NCBI GenBank assembly: GCA_025456175.1
Contig: JALOLC010000008.1
Span: forward strand, 1 to 53,484
Reading direction: 5' to 3'
DNA length: 53,484 nucleotides
Source: Acidobacteriota bacterium
GTDB lineage: Bacteria > Acidobacteriota > Aminicenantia > UBA2199
This document shows, piece after piece, positions 24,428 through 43,871 of the stretch. Position 1 is the stretch's first letter. Every line of letters begins with the position of its first letter. Position numbers and translations under genes: made by a program. The notes under the pieces are model-generated. The model made no database searches. It worked only from the letters and a program-made list of their open reading frames with translations, and was not told the DNA's origin.

Positions 24428-24636
24428 ACGGTGTACGGTAGACGGTGTAAGGCAAGAAACGAAAACAAGATTCGCCGTACGTCGTACTGTTCAGGGGGGA
24501 CGGTAAATACCTGAAGCAAACTGCGCAAGACAGCGAGGAATGTCATTCCCTCCCACCGACTATTTCATGGTCAGTCGTGAACCGAGCTCACTTTTTTTCT
24601 TTACCGTCAACCGTTTGCCGTCAACCGTATACCGAG
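24428..24636. repeat. ACGGTNN / ACCGTNN heptamer arms separated by about 150 nt
   Basis: Left arm ACGGTGT ACGGTAG ACGGTGT (24428-24448). Right arm TACCGTC AACCGTT TGCCGTC AACCGTA TACCGAG (24602-24636). The arms are complementary in ACGGT/ACCGT blocks. Confidence 0.6.
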
Positions 24637-24655
24637 CTCAAAAGCGTGTCGGGTC

Positions 24656-24683
24656 TTGAAATAATAATTCCATTGTCTATAAT
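24656..24683 (+). promoter_or_regulatory. sigma70-type promoter
   Basis: TTGAAA (24656-24661), a 16-nt spacer, then TATAAT (24678-24683). GGTGAGGTG RBS lies before ATG 24703. Confidence 0.55.
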
Positions 24684-24702
24684 CTTCCCGGTGAGGTGCA
24701 GA

Positions 24703-26034
24703 ATGAAAAAAAGCCTTATTTTGCTCTTGTGCGGATTGCTGCTCGGCGCCGCCGCGGCCTGGGCGGTGATCCACTTCGTCGTTCCGCGCTGGGACCGCTC
24801 GGCCGTGGACAACACCTTCTGGCAGGTGGCCTCCCGGCTGGACCAGGGCGGCGAAGCCTTTGCCTACTTCCATGCCGAGGAGGTCGGCAAGGCGGCCATG
24901 ACCATCCTCGACAGCCTGAAGCGGAACGCGACCGCGCTGCCCGCTGCGCAGCAATCCCAGGCCAGGCAGGGCCTGGGCATGCTGGAACTGATGCTCAAGG
25001 GCTACGGCTTGGACGAGCTCAGCGGCCTCGGCTTCAGCTCTTTCGCCGTCAGGCCCGGCTTGCACCGCGTCCGCGTCGTGCTCCACCACCGCCCGGGACG
25101 CGACAAGGGGCTGATCTGGAACATGACCGGCCCGGCGCCGCGGCCCCTGGACGAACTGGAGCTGCTCCCCGCCGGCACGGCCCTGGCTCTCATCTCCGAC
25201 TACAACCTGGTCAAGCTGATCGAGTGGGCGGGCCGGATCGGCCCGATGATGGGCACCCAGGGCCAGTCCGATGCCCCGGCCCCCGGCGCCGACCAGGCCA
25301 TGGCCATGATCAAGGCCGGGCTGCAGGCGGCCGGCATCGACTCCGACCGCCTGTTCAAGTCGTACGGCGGCCGCCTGGGATTCCTGCTGGTGCTCGACCC
25401 GGAAAAGAGGGTGACGCTGCCGGCACAGGGCAAGCCCCTGTCGATTCCCGAGCCGGCGTTCGCCCTGCTCATGCGCGTCAACGACAACTACCTGTTCGAT
25501 ACCCTCAAGGCCAAGCTGGCCGCCCTGGGGCAGCCCAAAATCAGCGAGGAGGGGGGGATGAGGAAAATCGCCTTCCCGCCGCTGCCCGCCCCCTTCCCCC
25601 TGGAGCCGGCCATCGTCCAGAAGGGCGAGTGGCTGCTGGTGGCCTCGCGGCCAGCCCTCGCCGACGAGATGCTCGGCAAAAAGACGCCGCGCCTGAGCGC
25701 CGGCGCCGATTTCAAGGCCATCGCCACCAAGGCCCCCACCCTTGGCAACGGTTTCAGCTATGCCAGCCCGGTGCTGCTGCGCCTGGTCGCCCAGGTCTTG
25801 CGCGAGAACAAGGGCGGGCTGCAGCCGGAGTCGGCGCTGCAGAAGATCACGTCGCTTCTCGACGCCAACAAGGGGCTGTACTGGGTGGTGGAGAACTCCA
25901 GCCAGGGGCTGACCTACACGTTCAACCATGGCTTCGAGATCTCCTCCCTGCCCGCGCTGGTCGAGGCCTTCGTCGAGATCGCCGCCGCGAAGGCGAAGGA
26001 GAAAGCGGCGGCCGCGGTGCCGGCAGAGGAATAG
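24703..26034 (+). CDS. hypothetical membrane-anchored protein
   Basis: N-terminal anchor MKKSLILLLCGLLLGAAAAWAV. No catalytic motif recognised. Confidence 0.6.
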   Translation: MKKSLILLLCGLLLGAAAAWAVIHFVVPRWDRSAVDNTFWQVASRLDQGGEAFAYFHAEEVGKAAMTILDSLKRNATALPAAQQSQARQGLGMLELMLKGYGLDELSGLGFSSFAVRPGLHRVRVVLHHRPGRDKGLIWNMTGPAPRPLDELELLPAGTALALISDYNLVKLIEWAGRIGPMMGTQGQSDAPAPGADQAMAMIKAGLQAAGIDSDRLFKSYGGRLGFLLVLDPEKRVTLPAQGKPLSIPEPAFALLMRVNDNYLFDTLKAKLAALGQPKISEEGGMRKIAFPPLPAPFPLEPAIVQKGEWLLVASRPALADEMLGKKTPRLSAGADFKAIATKAPTLGNGFSYASPVLLRLVAQVLRENKGGLQPESALQKITSLLDANKGLYWVVENSSQGLTYTFNHGFEISSLPALVEAFVEIAAAKAKEKAAAAVPAEE

Positions 26035-26157
26035 CGACGCCGTGACGGGCAAGGAGGAAGCAGGGACAAGCCGGCACGAACTCGAACTGGCGCCGCCGCG
26101 CCTTATTCATCGCTCCGCGCTTGGCAACGAAGGCTCTGCATCTTTCCAAGGTGGCCG

Positions 26158-26856
26158 ATGAAAACCCTGATTGCCATGCTGCTGCTCCCTTTGTCCCTGA
26201 TCCTGGCGGCCCAGGAGGAGCCGCTCGTTGCCGCCGATTCCCAGGATCAGGGGGCGTTTTTTTTCGAAGCCACCAGCCAGTATCTTTCCTTCGCCCTCGC
26301 TGACCTGGACGGAGCGGGGATCATTGGCAATGCCGACCAGGTGTTCTTTCTCCCCCGGATCAGGCCCAGCCTGGGCCTGGGTTTCGGCTTCGGCCGCCGC
26401 TTCCGCTCGGGGCTCTGGGCGGTCACCTACCTGGTCTCCGGACACGACGCCGACTTCCAGGCGCGGGAGAGCACAGCCGTGTCGCGCCTGGTCCAGGTCC
26501 ACTCGCGCATTTTCCTGAACCGCGCCTCGAGACTGCGGCCCTTTCTTCACGTGGGGCTCAGTTTTCCCTGGCTGAAAGTTCGCGACAATGTTGCCGACGG
26601 CAACGGCGTATTGCACGATGCCACCTACGCGGGCGTGGGCGTCAACGGCGGCGCCGGCCTTCTGGCTCCGCTCTCCTCGCGCATGTTCTTCAGCGCCAGC
26701 CTGGTCTGCCGCTACCTGGGCTACCTCTATGCCTATGGCCCGGTGAAGGGGATCGACGTGACCGATCTTTTCGACGGTGTGAGCGGCCCGCGCCACCGCC
26801 GTTTCCTGCGGGCTCCGGTCGTCGCGCTCGAATTAAGCTTGGGCTATGAGTTATAG
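26158..26856 (+). CDS. outer-membrane beta-barrel protein (small porin-like)
   Basis: Signal peptide MKTLIAMLLLPLSLILAAQ and alternating-hydrophobic beta-strand pattern. Confidence 0.55.
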   Translation: MKTLIAMLLLPLSLILAAQEEPLVAADSQDQGAFFFEATSQYLSFALADLDGAGIIGNADQVFFLPRIRPSLGLGFGFGRRFRSGLWAVTYLVSGHDADFQARESTAVSRLVQVHSRIFLNRASRLRPFLHVGLSFPWLKVRDNVADGNGVLHDATYAGVGVNGGAGLLAPLSSRMFFSASLVCRYLGYLYAYGPVKGIDVTDLFDGVSGPRHRRFLRAPVVALELSLGYEL

Positions 26857-26942
26857 TGACAAGTAACAAGTGACAAGTGACAAGGAAAAATGCAATTTCA
26901 AATGGATGTTCATGTCATTGCGGTTCCTCGTCACTCGTCACT
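26856..26942. repeat. GTGACAA-heptamer hairpin element, copy 1
   Basis: GTGACAA GTAACAA GTGACAA GTGACAA GGAA, then a 36-nt loop, then TTCCTCGTCACTCGTCACT. 17 of 19 stem positions are Watson-Crick. Confidence 0.8.
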
Positions 26943-26949
26943 GAAGAGA

Positions 26950-26978
26950 TTGCCATTCCGGTCCGGCCCGGATAAAAT
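26950..26978 (+). promoter_or_regulatory. sigma70-type promoter
   Basis: TTGCCA (26950-26955), a 17-nt spacer, then TAAAAT (26973-26978). Confidence 0.5.
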
Positions 26979-26997
26979 GATTCCAAGGTAAAGACCT

Positions 26998-27687: not shown

Positions 27688-27709
27688 TTACTTTACAAAA
27701 GGAGGGGGG

Positions 27710-28930: not shown

Positions 28931-28942
28931 AAAGGAAAGGAC

Positions 28943-29043
28943 TCGGTATACGGTGGACGGTTGACGGCGGGCGGCAGCAGCGATCCTCGAACTAGAGCGG
29001 TGAATGGCAATGACCGTAAACCGTGTACCGTAAACCGTAGGCC
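28943..29043. repeat. ACGGTNN-heptamer hairpin element
   Basis: TCGGTAT ACGGTGG ACGGTTG ACGGCGG GCGGCAG faces GACCGTA AACCGTG TACCGTA AACCGTA. 4-5-bp helices are separated by 2x2 mismatches. Confidence 0.65.
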
Positions 29044-29119
29044 AAGCTTTGATGAATCGCGGTATTGATTTTCGGCGGCGTTTGTCCTACCATGGCTCTT
29101 TTCAAGACGGAGGAAGGCC

Positions 29120-29770: not shown

Positions 29771-29776
29771 CCCGTA

Positions 29777-29872
29777 CTCGGTGTAGGGTGCAAGGTGCAA
29801 GGTGAAGATGCTTATTGGATTTCTTGTCCTGTCTTTCCACCTGGCACCTTCTACCTTACACCCTGTGCCGAG
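29777..29872. repeat. GGTGCAA-heptamer hairpin element
   Basis: GGTGTAG GGTGCAA GGTGCAA GGTGAAG faces GCACCTT CTACCTT ACACCCT. The stem covers 28 positions: 22 WC, 4 G.U, 2 mismatches. Confidence 0.75.
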
Positions 29873-29880
29873 AACGCTGT

Positions 29881-31838: not shown

Positions 31839-31867
31839 ATTGTAGGCGAAGAAGCCGTGGTTATCAA
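31839..31867 (-). promoter_or_regulatory. sigma70-type promoter, leaderless layout
   Basis: Minus strand reads TTGATA (31867-31862), a 17-nt spacer, TACAAT (31844-31839), then 6 nt to GTG 31832. Confidence 0.5.
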
Positions 31868-31876: not shown

Positions 31877-31995
31877 CAAGGGAAGAGAGAGGGAAAGCAG
31901 AGGGAAGACAGAGTGAAAGAAAAAGAGGTGTCAGCGGAGCTTTTTTGGGCTCCAGATTCCCTCTCTCGCTTCTGTCTTCCCCTTGTTTCTCTGAG
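31877..31995. repeat. polypurine / polypyrimidine inverted repeat
   Basis: 31878-31928 is 48/51 purine and 31957-31992 is 33/36 pyrimidine. Two perfect 11-bp complementarities: 31885-95 with 31957-67, and 31902-12 with 31971-81. Confidence 0.7.
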
Positions 31996-32009
31996 TATCG
32001 CCTGGATCA

Positions 32010-32038
32010 TTGGTTCCGGACGTGAAGTAAGGTAGAAT
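32010..32038 (+). promoter_or_regulatory. sigma70-type promoter, leaderless layout (M16 gene)
   Basis: TTGGTT (32010-32015), a 17-nt spacer, TAGAAT (32033-32038), then 6 nt to ATG 32045. Confidence 0.5.
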
Positions 32039-32044
32039 GACTTC

Positions 32045-34624
32045 ATGCATATCGATATCCCGTTCCAGAAGTACGTCCTGGAGAACGGCCTGACGCTGAT
32101 CGTCCACGAGGACCGCAAGGCGCCGATCGTGGCCTGCAACGTCTGGTACCATGTCGGCTCGAAGAACGAGAAACCGGGCCGCACCGGCTTCGCCCATCTC
32201 TTCGAGCACCTGATGTTCAACTACTTCGAGAATGTGCCCACGCCCGCCTGCGACCTGGCCTTGTGGCTGGAATCGGACCGCATGGGCCATCTCCAGGGCG
32301 CCGTCAGCCAGGCCAAGCTGGATGAGCAGCGGGGGGTGGTGCAGAACGAGAAGCGCCAGTACGACAACGAGCCCTACAATGTCGCCGAGGAGCTCATCGC
32401 CAAGGCCTGCTTCCCGGCCGGCCATCCCTATTCCTGGACGGTGATCGGCTCCATGGCTGACCTGCAGGCGGCCACCCTGCAGGATGTCCACCAGTGGTTC
32501 GCCACCCATTACGGTCCCAACAATGCCGTGATCGTTATCTGCGGCGACATGGACGCCCAGACGGCACTGGCCAAGGTCAAACGCTATTTCGGCGACATCC
32601 CGCCCGGCCCGCCCGTCGCCCGTTATGAGGCCTGGATCGCCAAGCGCAGCGGCGAGCAGCGGCAAGCGGTGGAGGACCGCGTTCCCCAGGCCCGGATCAT
32701 GAAGATCTGGAACGCGCCCCAGGCCTTCAGCGCCGAGAACGACCAGCTGGGGCTGGCCGCGCAGCTGCTGGGCTCGGGCAAGACCTCGCGCCTGTACAAG
32801 CGCCTGGTCTACGATGACCAGATCGCCACCGACGTGGCGGTCTACGTTGATACGCGGGAGATCGCCGGGCTGTTCACCATCCAGGCCGACGTCAAGCCCG
32901 GGGTGGAGATCGCCGTGGTGGAGCAGGCCATTGATGAGGAGATGAAGCGCTTCCTGGCGTCCGGCCCCCAGCAGAAGGAGCTGGACAAGGTGCGCATGCA
33001 GTGCCTGGCGCGTTTCGTCCGCGGCTGCGAGCGCATTGGCGGCTTCGGCGGCAAGTCGGACATCCTCGCCCGCAGCCAGGTATTCGGCAGCAGCCCCGAC
33101 GCCTACCGCCGCACCCTGGAGAACATCGCAGCGGCCACGCCGGCCTTGATCAGGGAGGCCGCCGTCCGCTGGCTCTCCGACGGCGTCTACGTGCTGGAGA
33201 TCCGCCCTTATCCCGAGCTGGCCGCAGGCCGGGAGACGGTGGACCGCAGCCGCCTGCCCGAACCGGGTCCGGCGCCCGCCGTGCAGTTTCCCGAGTTCCG
33301 GCGCTTCACCCTGGACAACGGCCTGAAGGTCATGCTGGTCGAGCGTCATGCCGTCCCCATGGTCCGCCTGAACCTGGTCCTGGACGCGGGCTTTGCCACC
33401 GACCAGACGGGGATCGCCGGCACGGCCGAGCTGGCCATGGCCATGCTCGACGAGGGGACGACCCGGCGCAGCGCCCTGCAGATCAGCGAGGAGCTGGCAC
33501 TGCTCGGCGCCGGGCTGGGGACTGGCTCCGACCTGGACACCTCCGTGGTGTCGCTCTCCTCGCTGAAGGAGAAGCTCGATGCCGCCCTGGACATCTACGC
33601 CGACGTGATCCTGGACCCGCAGTTCCCGGAAGCCGATTTCCAGCGGCTGTTGAAGCTGCAGATCGCCCAGATCCAGCAGGAAAAGAGCTCGCCGTTCTCC
33701 ATGGCCTTGCGCGTCCTGCCCAGGCTGCTGTACGGATCCGGGCACGCCTACGGTACCCCCTTCAGCGGCACCGGCTACGAGGACTCGCTGGCCAGGCTGA
33801 CCCGCAGGGAGACGGTCGCCTTCCACCAGGCCTGGTTCAAGCCCGACCATGCCACGCTGGTGATTGTGGGCGCGACGACGGTCGGGGAGATGAAGCCCAG
33901 GTTGGAGAGGCTGTTCCAGGGCTGGCGCCCGGGGCCGATCCCGCCGAAGAACATCGCCGCCGTTGTCCCGCGCGCCCGGCCGGCCGTCTACATCATCGAC
34001 AAGCCCGCCTCACCCCAGTCGGTGGTCATCGCCGGCCAGCTGGCGCCTTCCTCGGCCGATCCCGAGCGCATCGCCATGGAGACCATGAACTTCATCCTCG
34101 GCGGCGACTTCGTCTCGCGCTTGAACATGAACATCCGCGAGGAGAAGCACTGGAGCTATGGCGCCGGCTCCTTCTTGTCCGGCGCCCGCGGCCAGCAGCC
34201 GTTCATCGCCTATGCCCCGGTGCAGGGCGACAAGACCCGGGAGACGATGGTGGAAATCCGCAAGGAGCTTGAGGGCATGCTGGGCCAGAAGCCGATCACC
34301 CAGGATGAATTCGCCAATGCCAAGAAAAGCCAGACCCTGCAGCTGCCGGGCTACTGGGAGACAATGGCGGCCGTAGAGGGGTCCCTGGTCGAGATGGTGC
34401 GCTACGGGCTGCCCGATGATTATTACCAGCGCTATCCCCAGCGGGTGCTCCAGCTGCAGGTTGCCGACCTGGACCGCGCCGCGCGCAAGGTCATCCATCC
34501 CGAGAACCTGGTTTGGGTGGTGGTCGGCGATCGGACCCTGATCGAGCCGCCGATTCGCGAACTCGGCTATGGCGAAGTCTTCGTCATCGACAGCGACGGC
34601 CAGCCGTCCAGCAAGCAACAGTGA
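32045..34624 (+). CDS. M16 family (pitrilysin/insulinase) zinc peptidase, fused double-module form
   Basis: HLFEHLMF (HxxEH) inverted zinc motif. 859 aa with two M16 halves. Confidence 0.85.
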   Translation: MHIDIPFQKYVLENGLTLIVHEDRKAPIVACNVWYHVGSKNEKPGRTGFAHLFEHLMFNYFENVPTPACDLALWLESDRMGHLQGAVSQAKLDEQRGVVQNEKRQYDNEPYNVAEELIAKACFPAGHPYSWTVIGSMADLQAATLQDVHQWFATHYGPNNAVIVICGDMDAQTALAKVKRYFGDIPPGPPVARYEAWIAKRSGEQRQAVEDRVPQARIMKIWNAPQAFSAENDQLGLAAQLLGSGKTSRLYKRLVYDDQIATDVAVYVDTREIAGLFTIQADVKPGVEIAVVEQAIDEEMKRFLASGPQQKELDKVRMQCLARFVRGCERIGGFGGKSDILARSQVFGSSPDAYRRTLENIAAATPALIREAAVRWLSDGVYVLEIRPYPELAAGRETVDRSRLPEPGPAPAVQFPEFRRFTLDNGLKVMLVERHAVPMVRLNLVLDAGFATDQTGIAGTAELAMAMLDEGTTRRSALQISEELALLGAGLGTGSDLDTSVVSLSSLKEKLDAALDIYADVILDPQFPEADFQRLLKLQIAQIQQEKSSPFSMALRVLPRLLYGSGHAYGTPFSGTGYEDSLARLTRRETVAFHQAWFKPDHATLVIVGATTVGEMKPRLERLFQGWRPGPIPPKNIAAVVPRARPAVYIIDKPASPQSVVIAGQLAPSSADPERIAMETMNFILGGDFVSRLNMNIREEKHWSYGAGSFLSGARGQQPFIAYAPVQGDKTRETMVEIRKELEGMLGQKPITQDEFANAKKSQTLQLPGYWETMAAVEGSLVEMVRYGLPDDYYQRYPQRVLQLQVADLDRAARKVIHPENLVWVVVGDRTLIEPPIRELGYGEVFVIDSDGQPSSKQQ

Positions 34625-34708
34625 AAAGTAAATGGTGAAAAGAAAGAGGGGCTGAAAGATTTCGGTGAAAATTACCCTGCATTTCACTTTTCACTATTCA
34701 CTTTTCAC
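34621..34708. repeat. GTGAAAA-heptamer hairpin element
   Basis: GTGAAAA GTAAATG GTGAAAA G faces TTTCACT TTTCACT ATTCACT TTTCACC. 22 positions: 20 WC, 1 G.U, 1 A.C. The first GTGA contains the M16 stop. Confidence 0.8.
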
Positions 34709-35323: not shown

Positions 35324-35452
35324 GGGGAGTTCTTTGACAGGGATGACTGAGTCATGCAGAACGGTTGAGAGCCCGGCTCGATGAACCCGTGCCAACCTTC
35401 CCGGCGCCCCGCCGGGAAAGGTGGAAACGCCTTTCACCAGGGAGGTGAAGCC
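35324..35452 (+). promoter_or_regulatory. structured 5' leader, unclassified
   Basis: 13-nt palindrome ATGACTGAGTCAT (35343-35355). 9-bp GC hairpin at 35398-35418. 7-bp bulged hairpin at 35420-35438, abutting the SD GGGAGG. Confidence 0.4.
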
Positions 35453-35698
35453 ATGACGGAAGTTACCTTTTTTGAAGATTTTCATTGCTTTGAATATCAC
35501 ACGCCGCAAGGTGCCGCGCAGCGCTTCCGCTATTACCTCTATTCCCCGGTATACGAGCGCATCCCGTTTTTCATCACGATATTAACGCAGGGGGAGTTCG
35601 CTCAGGAAAAAGTGACCTACTCCAGCGATTTTATCCCTTGTAGACTGGCTCGCCACTTGCAGGGCTTGAAGCGAACTGAAGTGACAAGTGAGGAGTGA
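35453..35698 (+). CDS. small hypothetical protein (81 aa), atypical composition
   Basis: GGGAGGTGA RBS lies 4 nt before the ATG. AT-rich third positions, unlike the neighbours. No homology recognised. Confidence 0.4.
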   Translation: MTEVTFFEDFHCFEYHTPQGAAQRFRYYLYSPVYERIPFFITILTQGEFAQEKVTYSSDFIPCRLARHLQGLKRTEVTSEE

Positions 35699-35774
35699 CA
35701 AGTGACAAGAAAGAAAAGGAAAACGGGTGAACGATTGATTTGATGCTGTTCCTCGTCACTGGTTACTTGTCACT
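35680..35774. repeat. GTGACAA-heptamer hairpin element, copy 2
   Basis: GTGACAA GTGAGGA GTGACAA GTGACAA faces GTTCCTCGTCACTGGTTACTTGTCACT. A 10-bp and a 9-bp helix flank a 4x4 internal loop. Confidence 0.8.
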
Positions 35775-37962
35775 ATTCTTGATCCAGAACTTTCCTGATC
35801 ACCTGCAGCATCTCCGGCATGGTGTAGGGCTTGGCCACGAACTCGCGGACGCCGCTGGCCAGGATGGATTCCTTCAGCGCCGCCTCGACGAAGCCCGATA
35901 TCAGGATGATCCTGGTGCCGGGATTGTCGCTGAGGATCGAGCGGCTGACGGCGGCGCCGTTGATCTTGGGCAGATCCATGTCGGTGATGACCAGTTGGAT
36001 GTCGCCGCGATGGCGGCGGTAGCGCTCCAGGGCCTCCAGGCCGTCACGGGCCACCAGGATGTGATAACCATAGTCATGCAGCACCGAGCAAAACAGTTCG
36101 CGGAGGTCTTCCTCGTCCTCGATCACCAGGATGGTCTCGCTGCCGCCGGTAACGGGCGGGGCTTCCTGGCCGCCCTGGGGCGCCAGCAGGTCCTGGCGCT
36201 CCGATGCCGGGAAAAAAAGGGAGAATGAGGAGCCCTTGCCGAGCTGGCTGTCGACCTCGATGAAGCCCTTGTGCGCCTGGACGACCCCGTAGACGACGGC
36301 CAGCCCCAGCCCCGTGCCCCGGCCCCGCCCCTTGGTGGAGAAAAAGGGCTCGAAGATGCGGTCACGGGTCTTCTCATCCATGCCCACCCCGGTGTCGCTG
36401 ACAAAAATGCGGACCAGGCGCTTGCCCGCTGCGGCGGGGAAGCGCGAAGCGATGGCGCTGCCGTCAATCAGGTCAGCGCCGATCTCCAGCCTGCCGGTGC
36501 CGGCCATGGCGTCACGGGCATTGATGCACAGGTTGAGCAGGGCCTGGTGCAGTTGGCTCGGGTCCATCCAGACCGGGGGCAGCTCGCTCGGGCAGGAAAA
36601 GCGGATATCCATGGTGCGGGGAAAGGTGACGCGCAGCATCTTGACCAGTTCGCTGACCATCTCCTGGAGACGCAGGGCGCGGAAATCGGCCTCGGATTTG
36701 CTGGCAAAGGTCAGGATCTGCCTGACCATGGCGCTGCCGCGTTCGGCGGCCTCGTGGATCGTATGCAGCGCGCTTTGCGCCGTGGGCTGGCCCTGCAGCT
36801 TGTCCGCCAGGAGCGCGGCGTGGCCGCTGATGATCGAGATGATGTTGTTGAAATCGTGGGCGATGCCGCCGGCCAGCGTGCCCAGGCTTTCCAGCTTCTG
36901 GTTCTGGCGGATCTCGGCTTCGAGGATGCGGTGCTCCTCCTCACTGCGCTGACGCTCGGAGATGTCGAGGCAGGTCAGCACCCGCACCTCGCGTCCGCGG
37001 TAGGGGATGGTCTTGCTCCGGCTTTCGACCGGTATGATCCTGCCGTCCCGCCCCTTGACCCGGTGCTCAAAGGAAGCGGTCGAATCGGATTGGGCGAGGA
37101 TGATGGCGGCGGATTCCGCTTCCATGAACTCGCTGAGCGGGCGGCCGATGAGCTCGCGGGCCTCGCAGCCGAGCATGCGGGCCAGGATGGAATTGGCGTC
37201 GATGATGACGCCGTTTTCGCTCAGGCACAGCCCTTCGATGGTCGACTCGGCCAGGAGGCGGAAACGCGTCTCGCTCTCGCGCAGCGCCGCTTCGGTCTGC
37301 AGCCGCTCGTCTACCTCGCGCTGCAGCATTTCGTTGCTGGCGCGCAGTTCCCGCTCGTTCCGCCTGGCCAGGGCGATATGGTGCATGAGATCGCTGGCCA
37401 AGAGGCGCACCGGGACGGCGGCCAGCAAAAAGAAAGCCGTGATCGTGAGCAGAGCGAAGATGCTCGTGTCCAAGGGCCTCGACCAGTGGATCCAGCCGTT
37501 GATCTCCAACAGGATGATGGCCACGGCCGAGAGCCAGGACAGCACGACGATGGCCAGGAATTCCTTCGGCCGCAGCAGCAGGCCGCCGCCGGCAATGATC
37601 ACCGGATAGAGCAATGCTCCCAGGTCGTGGATGCCGCCGCCGATGTAGAGCACGATGGAAATGAGGAAGAGCGCGAACAGGAAGGTCAGGAAAATGGCCA
37701 GGCGGACGCGGCCCCGGCGCAGGGGGATCTGCAGCAGCAGGAACACGGCGGCGCCGGCGGCGATCACCGCCGGTTTCCCCGGCTCCCTGGCCGCGAGGGC
37801 GGCGATGGCCGTCAGCCCGATGGCGATGAATCCGAACCAGAGGATCGTGCTCAAGACCTTGGCGAGCCGATCGTTCTCCTCGTCGCCGCAGCGGGGCGGG
37901 GCAAGTACGCCGCCCAGCCATTTCGCCATGCCGGATGCCGGTTTTTCCCTTGTTGTGCCCAT
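35773..37962 (-). CDS. hybrid sensor histidine kinase (TM region, PAS, HisKA, HATPase, C-terminal receiver)
   Basis: H-box IAHDFNN, G-box GTGLGLAVV, receiver ILVIEDEEDL...DMDLPKINGA. About 6 N-terminal TM segments. Confidence 0.85.
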   Translation of the reverse strand: MGTTREKPASGMAKWLGGVLAPPRCGDEENDRLAKVLSTILWFGFIAIGLTAIAALAAREPGKPAVIAAGAAVFLLLQIPLRRGRVRLAIFLTFLFALFLISIVLYIGGGIHDLGALLYPVIIAGGGLLLRPKEFLAIVVLSWLSAVAIILLEINGWIHWSRPLDTSIFALLTITAFFLLAAVPVRLLASDLMHHIALARRNERELRASNEMLQREVDERLQTEAALRESETRFRLLAESTIEGLCLSENGVIIDANSILARMLGCEARELIGRPLSEFMEAESAAIILAQSDSTASFEHRVKGRDGRIIPVESRSKTIPYRGREVRVLTCLDISERQRSEEEHRILEAEIRQNQKLESLGTLAGGIAHDFNNIISIISGHAALLADKLQGQPTAQSALHTIHEAAERGSAMVRQILTFASKSEADFRALRLQEMVSELVKMLRVTFPRTMDIRFSCPSELPPVWMDPSQLHQALLNLCINARDAMAGTGRLEIGADLIDGSAIASRFPAAAGKRLVRIFVSDTGVGMDEKTRDRIFEPFFSTKGRGRGTGLGLAVVYGVVQAHKGFIEVDSQLGKGSSFSLFFPASERQDLLAPQGGQEAPPVTGGSETILVIEDEEDLRELFCSVLHDYGYHILVARDGLEALERYRRHRGDIQLVITDMDLPKINGAAVSRSILSDNPGTRIILISGFVEAALKESILASGVREFVAKPYTMPEMLQVIRKVLDQE

Positions 37963-38263: not shown

Positions 38264-38302
38264 GGCGATCAGGATACGGCTCAATGCCATCCGGAGGCGG
38301 AA

Positions 38303-38590
38303 ATGAAAAAGTTCATCGTGTTGTTTTTCATTGTCGTTCTGCTGTTTTCGTGCGCTCCCGGGCCGAACCGGCTGGCGAAGACGGCCAATCCCGAGGGGAA
38401 AGTAGCCGGCTTCTGGCAGGGTTTGTGGCACGGCCTGATCGCCCCCATCACGTTCATCGTATCCCTTTTCAGCAGCAAGGTCGCTCTCTATGAAGTGCAC
38501 AACAACGGCGGCTGGTACAATTTCGGTTTCGTGCTGGGCGCCGGGTTGTTCCTCAGCGGCGGCATCCTGGGCCGCAAGAAAAAGAAGTGA
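38303..38590 (+). CDS. small membrane lipoprotein, hypothetical
   Basis: Lipobox LLFSC after the signal peptide, two further hydrophobic segments, and a KKKK tail. Confidence 0.6.
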   Translation: MKKFIVLFFIVVLLFSCAPGPNRLAKTANPEGKVAGFWQGLWHGLIAPITFIVSLFSSKVALYEVHNNGGWYNFGFVLGAGLFLSGGILGRKKKK

Positions 38591-38705
38591 CGAGTGACAA
38601 GTGACGGGGTTTGAACGAACCTTCGTGACGCGTGACAAGGAAGAAAAACGTCTTTATTTCGATCGATGGGTATTTCTCGTCACTCGTTGCTTGTCACTTG
38701 TCACT
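38586..38705. repeat. GTGACAA-heptamer hairpin element, copy 3
   Basis: 38586-38608 pairs with 38683-38705 (19 WC plus 4 G.U over 23 positions). The loop carries an extra CGTGACG CGTGACA AGGAAGAAAAA arm. Confidence 0.8.
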
Positions 38706-38748
38706 GAGATCAGAGATCTTCTTGCAATGAAGTAGAATAAGCGGCGTT

Positions 38749-40212
38749 CTATTTCCTGACCGGGAGCAGCGCCCGCAGTCGCCCCAGGTCCTCCTTCTTC
38801 ACGACGCGCAGGACGAAGAGCAGCGCGACGAATCCTCCCAGCAGGGCGAAGCGGTGCCACGTCTCCAGGCCGACCCGATAATAGAGGAAATAATAGGACA
38901 GGCCGGTGACGGCAACGACGCCCAGGATCTTCGCCAGTTTTCCGTATTCATAGGGGATGGGATAGAATTTCCGCGCAACAAAGTGAAGGCCGGCGGCCAT
39001 GACCAGGTAGCTGGCCAGTACGGCCAGCGCAGCGCCGCTGATGCCCAGGCGCGGGATGAGCAGCAGGTTGGCCAGGACGTTGACCAGGGCCCCGGCGCCG
39101 GTGATCAGCGGGAAATACTTGGTTTTTTCTGCGATATAGAACCCGGCCTGCAGGTTGACGTAGATGCCGTTGAAGAGATAGGCCAGAAGGATGATCGGCA
39201 CCACGACCAATCCGGGGAGGAATTGCCCGGCGATGAGCGAGCGGCCGGGGGCGAACTCCCAGCCGGCGGCAAGGTCGATGAACAGGGAAACGACCAGCCA
39301 CAGCAGGCTCGCTGCCAGGACGAAGAGGGTCATCACCCTGGCGAACATCTCCCGCGCGTTCTTCTCACGGGCATTGTTCAGGAAGAACGGCTGCCAGGCG
39401 TACTGGAACATGGAGACCACCAGCATCATGAAGATGCCGAGCTTGTGGCCGGTCTGGTAGAGCCCAAGCGTATCGGCATCGGTCAGGGCCAGGACGATGG
39501 GACGGTCGATGACCTGGATCATGATCGAAGCCAGGCTGGCGGGGAGGTAGGGGAGGCCGAAGCGCAGCATCCGCCGCAGGAGGGGCCCCTGGATCCTGCG
39601 GCCGAGCCGGGCCCAGGTCTCAGGCAGCAGGGCCAGGAAGGTCGCGGCCGAGGCGATGAGGTTGGCGGCGAAGATGGCCTCGATGCCCATGCGGAACTTG
39701 ACGAAAAAGAGGAGGTTGAGCCCCAGGTTGAGCAGGATGTTGCCCAGCTTGATGAAGGCGAATTTTTTCGCCTTGCGCTCCAGGCGCAGGTTGGCGAAGG
39801 GAATCAGGGCCAGGGTGTCGAAGAGCAGGATGAAGATGGTGTAGTAGACCAAGCGGGCGTATCCGGCGGGGACCTCCATCAGGCCCACGAAGGGATGGCG
39901 CAGCAGCAAGAGCGCCGCGCTCAGAATCAGGGTACTCATGACGACGGCGAGATAGGCGGTGGAAAACGTGATCTTCTTTTCCCCGGGCTCGGCCAGGGAG
40001 CTGTATTTCATGAAGGCGGCGTCCATGCCGTAGATATACACGATATTCAGGAACGCCAGGTAGGCGTAAACGTTGGTATAGATGCCCATGTCCCCGGGCG
40101 AGATGAAATGCGTATAGAAGGGGACGAGCAGGAAGCCGAGAAAGCGGCCGATGATGGTGGAAATGCCGTAGATCGCCGTGTCCCTGCCCAGTTCCTTTAT
40201 CTTTTCAATCAT
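38749..40212 (-). CDS. polysaccharide/oligosaccharide flippase, MOP superfamily (Wzx-like)
   Basis: About 14 TM segments. N-terminus MIEKIKELGRDTAIYGISTIIGRFLGFLLVPFYT is typical of Wzx/PST family proteins. Confidence 0.7.
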   Translation of the reverse strand: MIEKIKELGRDTAIYGISTIIGRFLGFLLVPFYTHFISPGDMGIYTNVYAYLAFLNIVYIYGMDAAFMKYSSLAEPGEKKITFSTAYLAVVMSTLILSAALLLLRHPFVGLMEVPAGYARLVYYTIFILLFDTLALIPFANLRLERKAKKFAFIKLGNILLNLGLNLLFFVKFRMGIEAIFAANLIASAATFLALLPETWARLGRRIQGPLLRRMLRFGLPYLPASLASIMIQVIDRPIVLALTDADTLGLYQTGHKLGIFMMLVVSMFQYAWQPFFLNNAREKNAREMFARVMTLFVLAASLLWLVVSLFIDLAAGWEFAPGRSLIAGQFLPGLVVVPIILLAYLFNGIYVNLQAGFYIAEKTKYFPLITGAGALVNVLANLLLIPRLGISGAALAVLASYLVMAAGLHFVARKFYPIPYEYGKLAKILGVVAVTGLSYYFLYYRVGLETWHRFALLGGFVALLFVLRVVKKEDLGRLRALLPVRK

Positions 40213-41366
40213 TAGAAAATGTCTCCTTGCCAGAGCCTGGCGCAGAATTGCTGCCAGGGAATAATTTGAATTCCGTTTTGGAGTTTCCTGGGGAAAGGAT
40301 CCCGCGAAACAATGAAATACTGGCGGCATTTTTCTTCCTGGCTGAACAGATGCAGCCCTTTGGTCCGCTCTCCCGCGTGATCGGATGATTTGATTTCGAT
40401 TGCCGCCTCTCCATCGCCAATGAGCAGGTCGACTTCAGCGCCGTTGGTTGTCCGCCAGAATGACAGTTCCAGATTTTTTTGGCTGTAATGGTTGTAAGCC
40501 CAGCACTCCTGCAGGATGAAATGCTCAAAAGCCCGGCCGTATTCATTCGTGCCCGGAGTGAGCGAACGGTAATTCAAGAGGCCGCTGACAATGCCGACAT
40601 CGAAAAAATAAAACTTGGCCGTATCGATCAGTCGCCGTTTTTTTGATTGTTTCCAGGGGAGTAGCCGTTTGCCCAGCAAAGTGTCTTCAAGGATCTGATA
40701 ATATTCACGGATAATCTTAGCCGAAACACCCGCTTCACGGGCGGCGTTGGAATAGTTCAGCAGCATACCGTTGGTCAAGGCCGCGGATTTAAGGAAAAGG
40801 CTGAAAGCGGGGAGATTGCGGGTCAGCGCTTCAGCCTGGATTTCCTCTTTCAGATAATCGTTGATGTATGCTTGCAGGTCCATGTGGAAATCGGAAGATA
40901 AATAATGGGCAGGAACGAGACCTGAACATAACGCTTTGTCCAAGTCCAATTGGCTGCCGATTTCCTTGCTTACTAATGGGAATAACTCATAGCGCCAGGC
41001 GCGGCCTCCCAAAAGACCGGTGTTGCCGCGTTTCAGTTTACGGGCACTCGAACCTGAAAGTATAAATTGATAGTGTTTATTTTCGATAAGCCAGTGGATT
41101 TCGTCCATCAGCTGCGGAATCTTTTGCACCTCGTCAATAACGATTGTTTTTCGTGTTTGGGCGGCGATCATTTGCCGAAGTTCCTTGGGGTTTTGGCTCA
41201 GACGCAAAAAAAGATCGAAGTCGAGTAGGTCAATCCAAAAAGCGTTGGCGAATTGTTGGCGTAGAAGTGTGGTTTTGCCGGTTTTGCGCGCTCCCCACAA
41301 AAAGGCGGACTGTCCCGCCGGCAGTTTGATGTTTAAAAATCTGGGCAGGATTTTTTTATTATTCAT
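40212..41366 (-). CDS. AAA family ATPase (AAA_14 / DUF4143 type)
   Basis: Walker A GARKTGKTT, Walker B TIVIDEVQ. Its stop overlaps the flippase start (TAATG). Low GC. Confidence 0.7.
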   Translation of the reverse strand: MNNKKILPRFLNIKLPAGQSAFLWGARKTGKTTLLRQQFANAFWIDLLDFDLFLRLSQNPKELRQMIAAQTRKTIVIDEVQKIPQLMDEIHWLIENKHYQFILSGSSARKLKRGNTGLLGGRAWRYELFPLVSKEIGSQLDLDKALCSGLVPAHYLSSDFHMDLQAYINDYLKEEIQAEALTRNLPAFSLFLKSAALTNGMLLNYSNAAREAGVSAKIIREYYQILEDTLLGKRLLPWKQSKKRRLIDTAKFYFFDVGIVSGLLNYRSLTPGTNEYGRAFEHFILQECWAYNHYSQKNLELSFWRTTNGAEVDLLIGDGEAAIEIKSSDHAGERTKGLHLFSQEEKCRQYFIVSRDPFPRKLQNGIQIIPWQQFCARLWQGDIF

Positions 41367-41372
41367 ACACCA

Positions 41373-41401
41373 ATGATATGATAATCTGCCCGGCAAGTCA
41401 A
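41373..41401 (-). promoter_or_regulatory. sigma70-type promoter, leaderless layout (AAA ATPase)
   Basis: Minus strand reads TTGACT (41401-41396), a 17-nt spacer, TATCAT (41378-41373), then 6 nt to ATG 41366. Confidence 0.55.
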
Positions 41402-41451
41402 ATTATCTGCGATAATCCGCCCATCAAGACAAATTATCCGCGATATGCCGG
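41380..41451. repeat. 2.3 tandem copies of a 31-bp unit rich in GATAAT/ATTATC hexamers
   Basis: Unit 1 is GATAATCTGCCCGGCAAGTCAAATTATCTGC (41380-41410). Unit 2 is GATAATCCGCCCATCAAGACAAATTATCCGC (41411-41441), 26/31 identical. A partial third unit follows. Confidence 0.75.
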
Positions 41452-41566
41452 CTTTCATTATTTGTTTTGTTTTTTGCATACCTCTTTTTTGTATTTGAGT
41501 TGTCCTTATTTTTTGGTTTTATGCGATCAGGTAGGGCCGCGGTTGTCGCGCCTCATATGCTGTCTT

Positions 41567-41595
41567 TTGACATCTATGCAGAAATCGGTTATAAA
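41567..41595 (+). promoter_or_regulatory. sigma70-type promoter of glnN
   Basis: TTGACA (41567-41572), a 17-nt spacer, then TATAAA (41590-41595). The leader opens with a 7-bp hairpin GATTTCG/CGAAATC. Confidence 0.6.
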
Positions 41596-41673
41596 ACGAT
41601 TTCGACTCGCCGAAATCCTAGAAGATTGTCGTGGGGAAAACCGCAGAAATTTAATTGGGATAGGGAAGGAAAA

Positions 41674-43761
41674 ATGAACGAAAAGTTTGCCAGCCATGTG
41701 TTTGGCCTGGAGAAACTGCAACAGACCCTGCCGCCGCAGATTTTCAAAAAGTTCAACCGTACGGTCGACCAGAAAAAAACTCTCGATGCCGACGTGGCGG
41801 AAGCGGTGGCCCATGCGATCAAAAAGTGGGCCGAGCATCTGGGTGTCACCCATTTTACGCATTGGTTCATGCCGTTGACCGGATTGACCGCCGGCAAGCA
41901 GAATACCTTCCTGGAATGGGAGGGTAACCGCAAGATCATTTCCTGTTTTTCCGGGCGCGACCTGATCAAGGGGGAGCCGGATGCTTCGTCATTCCCGCAC
42001 GGCGGTATGCGCTCGACCTTTGAGGCCCGCGGCTACACGGCCTGGGATCCCTGTTCTCCGGTCTTCGCGGTCAAAAGCCGCAAGAATTGCGTCCTCTTCA
42101 TCCCCTCGGTCTTTTATGGTTACAATGGTTGTGTTTTGGATAAAAAAACACCGCTGCTGCGTTCGTTGCGGTTGATCAATGATATTTCGCTTACTATACT
42201 CACCAAGTTCAACCTGCGGGCCCAATGGGTGAAAAACATGGTCGGCGCCGAGCAGGAGTTTTTTCTGATCTATGAAAAGGACTACCAGCAACGTCCCGAC
42301 CTGAAAACCGTCGGCCGGCTGATTTTCGGCGCCCGACCCCCAAGGGGGCAGCAGATGGGCGACCATTATTTTGGCGCCATTCCCGAAGCGGTGCTGCACT
42401 TCCTCGAGGATGTGGAGGAAGAGGCTTTGAACCTGGGCATTCCGGTTAAAACCCGCCATAACGAGGTGGCTCCCAACCAATTTGAAATTGCTCCACTTTA
42501 CGAGGAAGCCAACATCGCCGCCGATCATAACCAGTTGTTAATGGACCTGTTGATTCGTATCGCCCGTAATCATGGCATGGTCTGTTTGTTGCATGAGAAG
42601 CCCTTTGCTTTTTTTAATGGCAGCGGCAAACACATTAACTGGTCGTTAATGGATAGTCAGGGACGGAACTTGTTCACTCCTGGCGATAATAAAAACTCAC
42701 GGCTGGTATTTTTGAGTTTTTTAGCCGGGTTTATCTGCGGTATGAACCGCTATCATGATCTGTTGCAGGCGGTGCTGGCTTCCCCAGGAAACGAGCTGCG
42801 TTTGGGTGGCCATGAAGCGCCCCCGGCCATCATTTCTATCTTTTTGGGCGATGAATTGCAAGGAGTGATCGATGATCCCCAGGCCTTCATTACCGGTAGA
42901 TTTCGTAAATCGAAAATGGTACGCTTCGAAGAATTCGTGCCGGCGATTCTCCATGATCTCTCTGACCGCAACCGTACTTCACCCGTGGCATTTACCGGCA
43001 ACAAGTTCGAGTTTCGGATGCCCGGATCATCGGCTTCAATGGCTTTTCCGATCTCTGTGATCAATCTGCTTGTAGCCGCCGGTTTGACGGAAGTATACAA
43101 GGCCATAGAGAAGACTCGGGACGAAAAGGCGTTGGTTCATAAACTGCAGCATATCATCAGGGAAAACTCGGGTATAATTTTTGCCGGAGATAACTATAAC
43201 TCAGATTGGCATAGGGAAGCCCGCCGGCGGGGGTTGTTCATTCCGGTTTCGGTACCTGAGACGGTTGACCGTTTGCAGGAAGAAAAAAACATACGTTTGT
43301 TCGAAACATTCGACATACTTTCACGGGAAGAGATCAAGGCTAGAGCCGATATCAAGATCGAAATCTATGTCAAAACCGTGGAAATGGAATTGCGTGTCGC
43401 CCGTAATCTTTTGCGTGTCTATATTATTCCGGCGGCGCTTAAGAACCAAGCTATGCTTCTCGAAGCGATCCGCAAGTTTCCCCGGGAAATTCTGGCCAAG
43501 AAGCCGGCCATGCTAAAAAAGCAGCTTGCTTTCATCGCCAAATTCACTGAAAAGATCAACCGGTCAATGGAAATGGTATCTTTGCTGGATGAGGATAATG
43601 ACAAACTGAAAGAAGGAGATGATCGCACGCGAGCTCAATTTTGCACCAAGTTCATCCGGCCGCATTTGGCAGATGCGGCTATCCTGGTGGAGAAGATCGA
43701 AGAACGGGTGGACCGTGATTTCTGGAAGCTGCCGCGGGTGACCGACATCCTGTTCAGATAA
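41674..43761 (+). CDS. glnN: glutamine synthetase type III
   Basis: 695 aa with KTRHNEVAPNQFEIAP, NGSGKHINWS and LGGHEAPPAIIS motifs. GGAAGGA RBS. Low GC. Confidence 0.85.
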   Translation: MNEKFASHVFGLEKLQQTLPPQIFKKFNRTVDQKKTLDADVAEAVAHAIKKWAEHLGVTHFTHWFMPLTGLTAGKQNTFLEWEGNRKIISCFSGRDLIKGEPDASSFPHGGMRSTFEARGYTAWDPCSPVFAVKSRKNCVLFIPSVFYGYNGCVLDKKTPLLRSLRLINDISLTILTKFNLRAQWVKNMVGAEQEFFLIYEKDYQQRPDLKTVGRLIFGARPPRGQQMGDHYFGAIPEAVLHFLEDVEEEALNLGIPVKTRHNEVAPNQFEIAPLYEEANIAADHNQLLMDLLIRIARNHGMVCLLHEKPFAFFNGSGKHINWSLMDSQGRNLFTPGDNKNSRLVFLSFLAGFICGMNRYHDLLQAVLASPGNELRLGGHEAPPAIISIFLGDELQGVIDDPQAFITGRFRKSKMVRFEEFVPAILHDLSDRNRTSPVAFTGNKFEFRMPGSSASMAFPISVINLLVAAGLTEVYKAIEKTRDEKALVHKLQHIIRENSGIIFAGDNYNSDWHREARRRGLFIPVSVPETVDRLQEEKNIRLFETFDILSREEIKARADIKIEIYVKTVEMELRVARNLLRVYIIPAALKNQAMLLEAIRKFPREILAKKPAMLKKQLAFIAKFTEKINRSMEMVSLLDEDNDKLKEGDDRTRAQFCTKFIRPHLADAAILVEKIEERVDRDFWKLPRVTDILFR

Positions 43762-43774
43762 TAGCGAACGATAC

Positions 43775-43871
43775 ATGTTGGCGGTAGTGGTCGTGTTAGC
43801 AACTGGCAATAAACCGAAATCTCGATAGAACTTAAAAAGGTTCTTCCTGACACTAACACCAACACCAACAC
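43775..43871. repeat. hexamer-periodic weak inverted repeat (GGTNGT / CACCAA)
   Basis: GTTGGC GGTAGT GGTCGT GTTAGC faces CACTAA CACCAA CACCAA CAC. About 4 of every 6 positions pair. Confidence 0.45.

Follow-up and report, generated by a model that had tools for sequence, protein, structure and literature searches.

Inverted arrays of seven-nucleotide repeats at gene ends in an Aminicenantia contig, in related genomes and in viral contigs

Introduction

[quoted passage not shown] Our subject is a group of foldbacks whose two arms are tandem arrays of a 7-nt unit. They lie in a stretch of DNA of 53,484 nt from an Acidobacteriota bacterium of the lineage Aminicenantia (assembly GCA_025456175.1, contig JALOLC010000008.1, positions 1 to 53,484), which we call the window. 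An earlier note on this DNA had listed at least seven such hairpins between 24.4 and 43.9 kb and had proposed that stop codons in their arms serve as a fail-safe against unwanted translation. The window was compared with related genomes, metagenomes and viral contigs. Heptamer foldbacks are a little-studied yet widespread kind of bacterial and viral repeat.

In repetitive extragenic palindromic (REP) elements, one imperfect palindrome recurs in near-identical copies, its GTAG head being conserved; they are associated with the REP-associated tyrosine transposase (RAYT), and they stabilise upstream mRNA. [quoted passage not shown] The STRRs of heterocystous cyanobacteria are said, in work of 1997 attributed to Vioque, to extend helix P12 of RNase P RNA. 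Cyanobacterial STRRs in general are 7-bp tandem units with several families per genome, are intergenic and vary in sequence between species (PMC2670836). They are reported to form hairpins, for example between hupS and hupL, and a role in transcript stability, translational coupling or termination was proposed (PMC2670836); in Nostoc only few inverted heptamer pairs were found (Rehm et al. 2015, PMC4692102).

In Xanthomonas, GGGAATC forms tandem 7-nt units which are strongly intergenic, prefer four units and are of unknown function; each genome contains 70-75 convergent (G-first) inverted pairs capable of forming a stem-loop (PMC4692102). The G-rich strand is the coding strand when the array lies 0-50 bp from a stop codon or over it, and the non-coding strand upstream of open reading frames (ORFs), and the repeats are rare between divergent ORFs (PMC4692102). 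The same gaps are occupied in related species, with varying length and sequence, and the repeats tend to coincide with starts or ends of transcripts (PMC4692102). Essentially one unit is used genome-wide; it contains GGG tracts and forms a G-quadruplex (G4) in vitro, to which the four-unit preference was ascribed (PMC4692102). A third heptamer, TAACTGA, is found in marine Beggiatoaceae, cyanobacteria and Bacteroidetes (MacGregor 2015, PMC4679880). It was explicitly stated that its forward orientation gives stops in all three frames; the arrays overlap the ends of upstream ORFs, nearly all of them are direct arrays placed shortly upstream of a start codon, 132 of 170 sets face a start codon, and there is one inverted pair only (PMC4679880). 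The unit is present in distant lineages with no evident mechanism of transfer, and the arrays were proposed to be binding sites of a translational regulator, not hairpins (PMC4679880). Our literature searches returned nothing relevant on the unit strings described below, nor on repeats of this kind in Aminicenantes or Acidobacteria.

Results

Heptamer foldbacks in the window

The genes of the window, which has a G+C content of ~63%, were mapped with the G+C content of third codon positions (GC3) and Pfam. Arrays were located by Tandem Repeats Finder and complementary partners by inverted-repeat search; detection of hairpins seeded on period 7 was adopted, an ungapped detector at low thresholds giving mostly chance matches. 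Between 24.4 and 38.7 kb, a long foldback is present in 8 of the 12 gaps longer than 60 nt. In seven of them the arms are 3-5 copies of a 7-nt unit, and in the eighth the unit has 11 nt:

24422-24636: E1, ACGGTNN foldback (5' arm 24422-24450, 3' arm 24600-24636), z = -2.88
26855-26942: E2, (GTGACAA)4.3 ... (CTCGTCA)2.3 foldback, z = -4.88
28944-29041: E3, ACGGTNN / ACCGTNN foldback, z = -3.30
29780-29866: E4, foldback of GGTGCAA and its complement, z = -6.04
31879-32003: 11-mer element, purine-rich 11-nt unit AGGGAAGAGAG with a pyrimidine-rich 3' arm, z = -2.50
34621-34708: E5, GTGAAAA / TTTTCAC foldback after the M16 peptidase gene, z = -5.81
35680-35774: E6, GTGACAA foldback occupying an entire convergent gap, z = -3.37
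38585-38706: E7, GTGAC[AG]A foldback with nesting of an inner pair of arms (38625-38642 and 38676-38692) and an outer pair (38585-38608 and 38683-38706), z = -5.22

The z-scores of the RNA folds were computed against dinucleotide shuffles and range from -2.5 to -6.0 for the eight elements. Six period-7 arrays were observed in the window, while 0.33 are expected from a dinucleotide-matched simulation (maximum 2). Periods 8-12 are essentially missing, with one period-9 array; arrays of periods 6 and 9 are likewise in excess, mostly inside coding sequence.

The 5' arms of the elements contain 0-21% C and the 3' arms 0-24% G. The arms lie 22-150 nt apart (~149 nt in E1), and the stems comprise 25-40 bp of moderate G+C content with periodic mismatches. 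The G-rich, C-poor 5' arm described in the earlier note holds, but it does so automatically on both strands, because the reverse complement of X...X' keeps the order of the arms. The real observation is the polarity, with the G-rich arm first and the C-rich arm second. The seven hairpins of one plan are confirmed with E1-E7 at 24.4-38.7 kb, as are the units GTGACAA, GTGAAAA, GGTGCAA and ACGGTNN, to which E7 adds the form GTGAC[AG]A. The 11-mer element is a further look-alike with the same plan, and a site at 43.8 kb, which had supplied the end coordinate of the interval in the earlier note, was removed from the family since its period is 6 and not 7 and its z is only -1.42, 14 of 200 shuffles folding equally well:

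43790-43871: non-member site, ACACCA run of period 6, weakly complementary to a G/T-rich stretch, z = -1.42

A U-tract follows none of the window elements, in agreement with the earlier description. At the gathering score of Rfam, the only match in the window is an S-adenosylmethionine (SAM) riboswitch, and none falls at the elements; at E up to 5 the elements match only models of plant and animal microRNA precursors, which is chance level. A scan for tRNA and tmRNA found none. Small ORFs in the loops were considered on account of a Shine-Dalgarno sequence with ATG in the E2 loop and were dropped, E6 and E7 having no counterpart.

Stop codons, gene ends and promoters at the elements

At E2 (TAG) and at E5, E6 and E7 (TGA) the array contains the upstream gene's stop codon, and four window genes end on a stop supplied by an array. 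At E2, the TAG of the gene 26158-26856 overlaps the first unit. At E5, the M16 peptidase gene (32045-34624) stops on the TGA of the first unit (34622-34624). In two related loci (L001 and L002, see below) this gene ends on a native TAG, and the array begins 14-19 nt further on; the window has lost this TAG, and the protein extends to the TGA of the array. At E6, an 81-amino-acid gene on the plus strand stops on the TGA of the third unit (35696-35698), and from the other side a histidine-kinase gene on the minus strand stops on a TAG (35773-35775) overlapping the last unit. At E7, a gene of 95 amino acids stops on the TGA of the first unit (38588-38590); its ortholog in the related locus L004 has a native ...AAGAAGTGA end and no array in this gap. 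The arrays of E4 and E3 begin 9 and 14 nt after the stop, respectively, and E1, being in a divergent gap, has no upstream stop. The earlier note, which had claimed coupling to stop codons for five elements, is right about the shared architecture and about such coupling.

E3 lies between an OmpA-family gene (stop at 28930) on its 5' side and a cyclase gene on its 3' side. The gap of E4 is convergent, between the cyclase gene (+) and a DUF4097 gene (-), and the E4 unit GGTGCAA contains no stop trinucleotide. All three convergent gaps between 24 and 44 kb of the window hold a hairpin, and two of the eight elements (E1 and the 11-mer element) are in divergent gaps. E1 is flanked by the back-to-back promoters of clpS and orf24.7, and in tandem gaps a sigma-70-like promoter follows 7-21 nt after the 3' arm. 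The promoters next to E1 and E2 are:

24366-24394, minus strand: sigma-70-like promoter of clpS, TTGACA-17-TAGAAT, 33 nt left of E1
24656-24683, plus strand: sigma-70-like promoter, TTGAAA-16-TATAAT, 21 nt past the 3' arm of E1
26950-26978, plus strand: sigma-70-like promoter, TTGCCA-17-TAAAAT, 7 nt past the 3' arm of E2

The TTGACA/TTGACT box of clpS is kept in L001 and L002, where the counterpart of the promoter at 24656-24683 reads TTGAAT-N17-TATAAT, and the counterpart of the promoter at 26950-26978 in L001 is TTGCCA-N17-TAGAAT. In the region as a whole such promoters are enriched (17 vs 5.3 expected). A scan for terminator-like structures between 24.3 and 44 kb gave no enrichment (18 found vs 21.3 expected). 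The elements are confined to the space left by coding and promoter sequence, from the stop codon to the next -35 box.

The 11-mer element is placed between divergent promoters. Its minus-strand -35 box at 31867 is supported by the scan, and on its other flank a weaker TTGGTT-N17-TAGAAT (32010-32038) was found by eye, below the scan threshold. A distance of 6 nt separates the end of this promoter-like site from the M16 peptidase ATG (window 32010-32047), which suggests that the M16 peptidase mRNA is leaderless.

The first 24 kb of the window consist mostly of tightly packed genes with short gaps. The only array there is the partial arm that had been seen before:

21708-21733: partial array (GGCGAAA)3, minus strand, which is the clpA sense strand

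This array encodes the last seven codons of clpA (GKRRKAK*), and its unit is free of stops in all frames. Similar arrays stand at the end of clpA in L001 (1466-1502) and L002 (1849-1874). Stop-free heptamer arrays can be absorbed into coding sequence, as at the C-terminus of ClpA.

Polarity and gene context in metagenomes and viral contigs

The metagenomes of the Joint Genome Institute (JGI) and the viral contigs of IMG/VR were scanned for exact matches to GTGACNAGTGACNAGTGAC. Hairpins of the type (GTGACNA)n...(TNGTCAC)n were found in both collections, in at least 120 stretches each; with 17 specified bases, we estimate that some tens of chance matches are to be expected in collections this large. 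Among the matches listed, the metagenome stretches come from soil, peat and sediment and have mostly 55-67% G+C, and ~70% of arrays extend past the three required GTGAC cores. The listed arrays of the metagenomes (L013-L132) have three cores in 36 cases, four in 52 and five in 17, and those of the viral contigs (L137-L256) in 38, 52 and 23 cases. Four GTGAC cores are thus the modal number, in a search whose pattern captures arrays of three cores incompletely.

The polarity seen in the window recurs in this collection. For 133 metagenomic arrays among the matches listed, a complementary partner within 400 nt lies downstream in 39 cases and upstream in 6, and about two thirds of the listed GTGACNA arrays have no such partner within this distance. 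The paired hairpins listed (87 + 77 over all sequences) are G-first in 71 + 64 and C-first in 9 + 3 cases, i.e. 135 vs 12. Adjacent period-7 arrays follow each other as G-rich then C-rich in 32 cases and in the reverse order in one. The hairpins have a median length of 103 nt with a median of 38 nt between the arms. An all-against-all BLAST of the between-arm sequences gave only orthologs and one further pair, the CCAAATT/AGCACCA element described below.

Placement at stop codons, too, extends beyond the window: among 26 metagenome arrays that follow a co-oriented gene end supported by GC3, the stop falls within the array or precedes it by less than 10 nt in 20, and the flank has a consensus of roughly TAA/TGA-(G)AGCA-GTGAC. 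Relative to the G strand, the closest gene lies on the 5' side in 84 cases, of which 56 are gene ends and 28 are gene starts, vs 33. The count by class of gap which the earlier note had suggested for the whole genome was run on 61 classified hairpins; 47 are in tandem, 12 in convergent and 2 in divergent context. Some viral contigs carry four or five hairpins with differing unit families at successive gene junctions. Some viral examples (L214) show the order A-tract, hairpin, T-tract, as in bidirectional terminators.

Turnover in orthologous gaps

Relatives of the M16 peptidase gene with 78-84% identity were found only in metagenome-assembled genomes (MAGs) labelled Acidobacteria or Candidatus Aminicenantes. 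Six MAG loci, covered as stretches of ~22 kb, are syntenic with the window; loci are cited here by L numbers. The relatives contain 5-9 period-7 arrays per 22 kb, and among the long periods 7 predominates. Corresponding gaps are mostly occupied by a heptamer foldback as well, with another unit, or are without one. In the E1 gap, L001 has a hairpin of ACGGTNN units and L002 one of GTTAGAT units. In the E2 gap (after orf26.1) the unit is of the GTGAC type in the window, L001 and L005 and is GTTAGAC in L002, and L004 has no element there, its genes being 17 nt apart. The E5 gap (after the M16 gene) holds GTGAAAA in the window and L002, GTGACGC in L001 and L009 and GTGATGA in L004 and L005, with no element in L010 and L003. 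The E6 gap (between orf35.4 and the kinase gene) holds GTGACAA in the window and L002, the GTTCGAA type in L001 and L009, and L010 lacks an element there. From one related genome to the next the unit turns over, and whole elements come and go.

The heptamers had been described as locus-specific. Their families, however, are found again elsewhere, both at different loci and in different genomes (GTGAC[AG]N, GTGAAAA, GTGATGA, ACGGTNN, GTTAGA[CT], GTAGT[CT]A, GGTGCAA and GTTCGAA), so the units are not locus-specific. The comparison of orthologous gaps which had been proposed as a check was carried out across the syntenic MAGs and gave swaps of units, gain and loss of copies, and absence of elements.

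The 5' arm of E5 has 3 units in the window and 5 in L002 while the 3' arm is identical, and the sole difference of a strain variant (L133) in the 31.9 kb element is exactly one additional 11-nt unit, which is in the 5' arm. The arms change by gain or loss of whole units, each arm independently. E5 and E6 are identical in four strain-level contigs (99.6-100% identity), and the 11-nt copy difference falls outside any gene or promoter spacer. A phase-variable (contingency) locus was rejected, because E5 and E6 are the same in four samples at this level of identity.

The unit families of the two arms match in ~20 of 23 local cases. A C-first foldback with CCAAATT/AGCACCA heptamers is homologous over ~150 nt at two non-orthologous gaps (L001 9640-9815 and L002 16615-16795), and both copies are nested in the loop of a G-first element. 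This homology implies that at least this subfamily is dispersed, and it looks like a small mobile foldback.

Further arrangements were observed beside these elements. The segment of ~149 nt between the arms of E1 (24451-24599) has no counterpart in L001 and L002, whose orthologous hairpins are compact; it ends with a short hairpin and a T7 run (~24568-24590) and may be a small transcription unit that was inserted. In L001 the cyclase gene is preceded by three successive G-rich arrays (GTGACGC, GGCGTAG and AAAGTAA types), and downstream of it there are C-rich arrays (TTTTACN type) which are partly complementary to them. These inverted arrays, at 7412-7546 and 8318-8528 of L001, are ~950 nt apart with a whole gene between them. 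A Vicinamibacterales MAG (L011) contains at 6588-6659 (CATCGTC)5 followed by (GACGATC)4, a near-perfect, C-first palindrome of 70 nt with no loop, and a (GACGATG)5 array 2.6 kb upstream of it.

Stop codons and pairing of the arms

The C-poor strand is prone to stop codons because stops contain no C, and a period of 7 nt brings every trinucleotide of the unit into every frame within 21 nt. Three-frame stops, which the earlier note had ascribed in both directions to arrays containing TGA or TAA, were found in the 5' arms of E2, E5, E6 and E7 only (4/8), and on both strands only in E5 and E6. In the composition-matched comparison, which the earlier note itself had named as a criterion and which its fail-safe does not pass, a stop trinucleotide occurs in 50 of 113 distinct non-GTGAC units vs 50.9 ± 4.2 for letter-permuted units, and ATG or GTG on the C strand of the units was counted 2 times vs 6.0 ± 2.3 expected. 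Beyond composition, there was no sign at the level of words that stops are favoured on the G strand or that ATG/GTG are selected against on the C strand. The stop codons are a by-product of composition; they are used, with no sign of selection, and the proposed fail-safe did not hold up as a selected function.

The flavour of the unit is shared within an element (0.606) more than between elements (0.508 ± 0.029). Extrusion of a cruciform from duplex DNA was judged unlikely, given a median distance of 38 nt between the arms and what is generally known of extrusion kinetics.

Neighbouring features

The SAM-I riboswitch mentioned above (RF00162, 57.7 bits) precedes the conserved 81-amino-acid ORF (35453-35698; together 35349-35698), which has no match in Pfam or NCBIfam and whose last six codons and stop are supplied by the E6 array. 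Judging from this arrangement, the ORF may encode a small and unannotated protein which in this lineage is controlled by SAM. Further downstream, 40212-43761 is an island of low G+C (~49% vs 63%) containing a gene for an AAA_14/DUF4143 ATPase (-) and a gene for type III glutamine synthetase (GSIII) (+), which are divergent and 70 nt apart. The gap between them contains 2.1 copies of a 31-nt direct repeat, GATAATCCGCCCAGCAAGACAAATTATCCGC (41380-41445). A relative of the ATPase gene was not found in any syntenic locus; GSIII stands directly after the flippase gene in L001, and L002 has neither GSIII nor the ATPase gene.

Discussion

We tentatively prefer to see these elements as heptamer simple sequence repeat (SSR) foldbacks which are tied to gene 3' ends, built by slippage, and probably folded in transcripts as 3'-end structures lacking a U-tract. 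Their G-rich and C-rich arms face each other with 20-70 nt of locus-specific sequence in between. Polymerase slippage in a 7-nt register would build and homogenise the arms, and the two arms of an element would be related by descent or by weak selection for pairing. Upon transcription of the upstream gene, or of both convergent genes, the arms would pair into an imperfect stem of 25-40 bp. Such a stem could be a barrier to 3'-exonucleases, a substrate for a double-strand-specific RNase and/or a site of pausing or termination, in the last case possibly shielding the next promoter. The stop codons would come as a side effect of poverty in C and of the period of 7 nt. They would permit an array to extend up to the native stop or to take its place with no increase in protein length, and this may be why the arrays abut gene ends so tightly. 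Support for our preferred reading comes from the excess of period 7, the slippage of units, the turnover and dispensability of elements in orthologous gaps, the association with gene ends, the stability of the hairpins, their presence in all three convergent gaps between 24 and 44 kb, the promoters downstream and the shared flavour and matching families of the arms. The published rules of position for the Xanthomonas pairs and their relation to transcript ends (PMC4692102), the role in transcript stability proposed for STRR hairpins (PMC2670836) and the viral hairpins between A- and T-tracts point the same way.

Several observations weigh against this reading. Folding of the sense strand exceeds that of the antisense strand by -1.0 kcal/mol in 47 tandem-context hairpins (26 vs 14, Wilcoxon p = 0.16) and by -0.66 kcal/mol in another comparison of 42 hairpins (21 vs 16). 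Selection on the sense-strand RNA, looked for as an asymmetry of G.U vs A.C, gave no significant signal and at best a weak trend, in a test that is confounded by strand-biased C-to-T mutation. The order of the units is not mirrored between the arms, and the variable positions agree in 57-59%, equal to shuffled unit order. Pairing rests mainly on the constant GTGAC core, because the variable positions agree no better than shuffled ones, and mirror copying of the arms by inverted duplication or strict compensatory evolution was rejected on account of the unmirrored order. Pairs of a G-array and a C-array which are not complementary exist, e.g. ACGGTAN...CTCGTCA in L001 and L002. E1 and the 11-mer element stand between back-to-back promoters, and neither mRNA should include them. 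The gaps without element in L010 and L004 show no replacement structure, canonical terminators with hairpin and T-tract occur elsewhere in the window (e.g. 795-830), and TTTT is present within 12 nt of the 3' arm in only 11% and 7% of the hairpins.

Only somewhat less likely, in our view, is that the elements are neutral or selfish DNA with no cellular function. Heptamer microsatellites would then arise by slippage, some foldbacks would disperse, and both would persist where harmless. The hairpin would be incidental to facing arrays of one family, and polarity and stop-abutment would reflect only purifying selection, acting on arrays which lengthen proteins or create spurious starts. The elements are dispensable in close relatives, their loops are unrelated between loci, the order of units is unmirrored, a sense-strand RNA signature is missing, non-complementary pairs and elements between divergent promoters exist, and the CCAAATT/AGCACCA foldback is dispersed; moreover, an excess of heptamer SSRs is a known genome-wide mutational feature, at least as Mrazek 2007 is quoted in PMC4679880. 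Neutrality does not readily account for the identity of E5 and E6 in four samples at 99.6-100% identity, for arm families matching far above chance, for the depletion of divergent gaps, or for the recurrence of the GTGACNA unit across very different contigs and viruses, and for the polarity of 135 vs 12 no word-level selection on stops or starts is at hand. If the foldbacks were instead mobile in the manner of MITEs or of REP doublets forming hairpins (REPINs), moved by a transposase with the arrays as terminal inverted repeats and a preference for insertion at gene ends, then presence/absence polymorphism in orthologous gaps, different unit families in one gap of different genomes, nesting (E7, L009, and the inner elements of L001 and L002), the shared flank consensus TAA/TGA-(G)AGCA-GTGAC and the occurrence in viral contigs would find an explanation, together with the homology of the CCAAATT/AGCACCA element at two unrelated sites. 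We consider this rather improbable: the between-arm sequences are unique to the locus apart from orthologs and that one pair, a target-site duplication is not evident, the arms differ in copy number and their units are not mirror copies, and no transposase could be linked to them in the ~22-kb MAG stretches.

Two further explanations assign the arrays a direct function in protein binding or in translation. Arrays could bind a protein with a 7-nt register on single-stranded RNA or DNA (of the cold-shock, S1 or HutP-like kind) or on duplex DNA, inverted arrays bringing two protein-bound tracts together. A GTGAC core which is constant across very different contigs and viruses next to two variable positions, the modal number of four cores, and the single arrays making up about two thirds of the GTGACNA matches listed, with no partner within 400 nt, speak for binding, and candidate binders of heptamers were proposed for the TAACTGA repeats (PMC4679880). 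Against binding, many unrelated unit families exist in one genome, each with matching arms, no candidate protein was identified, and a spacing of 7 bp turns successive sites to different faces of the duplex; we regard binding as quite improbable. Still somewhat less credible is the translational fail-safe, i.e. stops in three frames and two directions selected to halt read-through or frameshifted ribosomes before the hairpin or the next gene. It fits arrays that begin at stop codons, the four window genes ending on array stops, a G-first polarity that puts the stop-prone strand first from both sides, and the count of ATG/GTG on the C-rich strand (2 vs 6.0 ± 2.3). It is contradicted by stop-containing units being no commoner than letter-permuted ones, by E1, E3, E4 and the 11-mer element, which lack three-frame stops, by the restriction of stops on both strands to E5 and E6, and by stop-less families (GGTGCAA, GTTCGAA, GGCGAAA, GACGATG), one of which, GGCGAAA, is translated as the tail of ClpA. 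In addition, some elements lie upstream of promoters, where no ribosomes arrive.

The polarity of the G-first foldback is not explained by base-composition tests. It is tempting to speculate, although we think it unlikely, that the GTGAC-core G-first foldback is a distinct class of element common to several phyla and their viruses, with a core of GTGAC and two free positions and modally four cores per arm, served by a dedicated factor with a 7-nt register or acting, in lineages like Acidobacteriota, as a bidirectional, U-tract-independent signal at the end of genes, with the Xanthomonas repeats as a special case. G4 formation would then not be the common cause.

If the foldbacks mark transcript ends or processing sites, as our preferred reading would have it, they offer a handle on the borders of transcription units in Acidobacteriota/Aminicenantes, which are abundant and mostly uncultured and in which canonical terminators account for few gene ends, and in their phages. 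Apart from this, arrays set real C-termini of proteins, as in the four window genes and in the ClpA tail, which is relevant to gene callers and to studies of C-terminal variation.

Comparison with known systems

With intrinsic terminators the foldbacks share the hairpin 3' of the stop codon and the use of one hairpin by both convergent genes. They differ from the short, G+C-rich stem with a 3-8 nt loop and a U-tract in the wide spacing of the arms (22-150 nt) and in the missing U-tract. Like REPs, bacterial interspersed mosaic elements (BIMEs), REPINs and MITEs, they are intergenic hairpins of ~100 nt, often 3' of genes, with presence/absence polymorphism and nesting. In contrast to REPs and REPINs, only the 7-nt unit is common, the loops are unique, a GTAG head is missing and the arms are tandem arrays. 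As to the features of MITEs, the G-first hairpins have no shared internal sequence, the CCAAATT/AGCACCA pair shares its full length, and there is no clear target-site duplication.

The TAACTGA repeats have the arithmetic of three-frame stops in common with the arrays described here; they are direct arrays at start codons. The STRR units CCCCAGT, TTGGTCA and CAACAGT differ from ours, and we did not find the strict G-first polarity and the abutment to stop codons described in the STRR literature.

The GGGAATC repeats of Xanthomonas resemble our elements most, as all their rules of position and orientation were recovered, with the exception of the G-tract. A G strand that leaves the gene, abutment to the stop codon, about four units and avoidance of divergent gaps were previously known only from Xanthomonas, and the modal four GTGAC cores echo its four-unit preference. 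Unlike GGGAATC, the units GTGACAA, GTGAAAA, ACGGTNN and GGTGCAA have no GGG run, are unable to form a G4 and do not belong to the G4 subclass; further, there are several unit families per genome, and the phylum is another one. Since the rules of the Xanthomonas type hold without G4 potential, the explanation by G4 is undercut. Our observations extend these rules to units without G4 potential, to another phylum and to contigs of viruses; they prompt one to ask what determines the polarity and the 7-nt register, and they call for a common cause of the Xanthomonas repeats and the non-G4 heptamer foldbacks.

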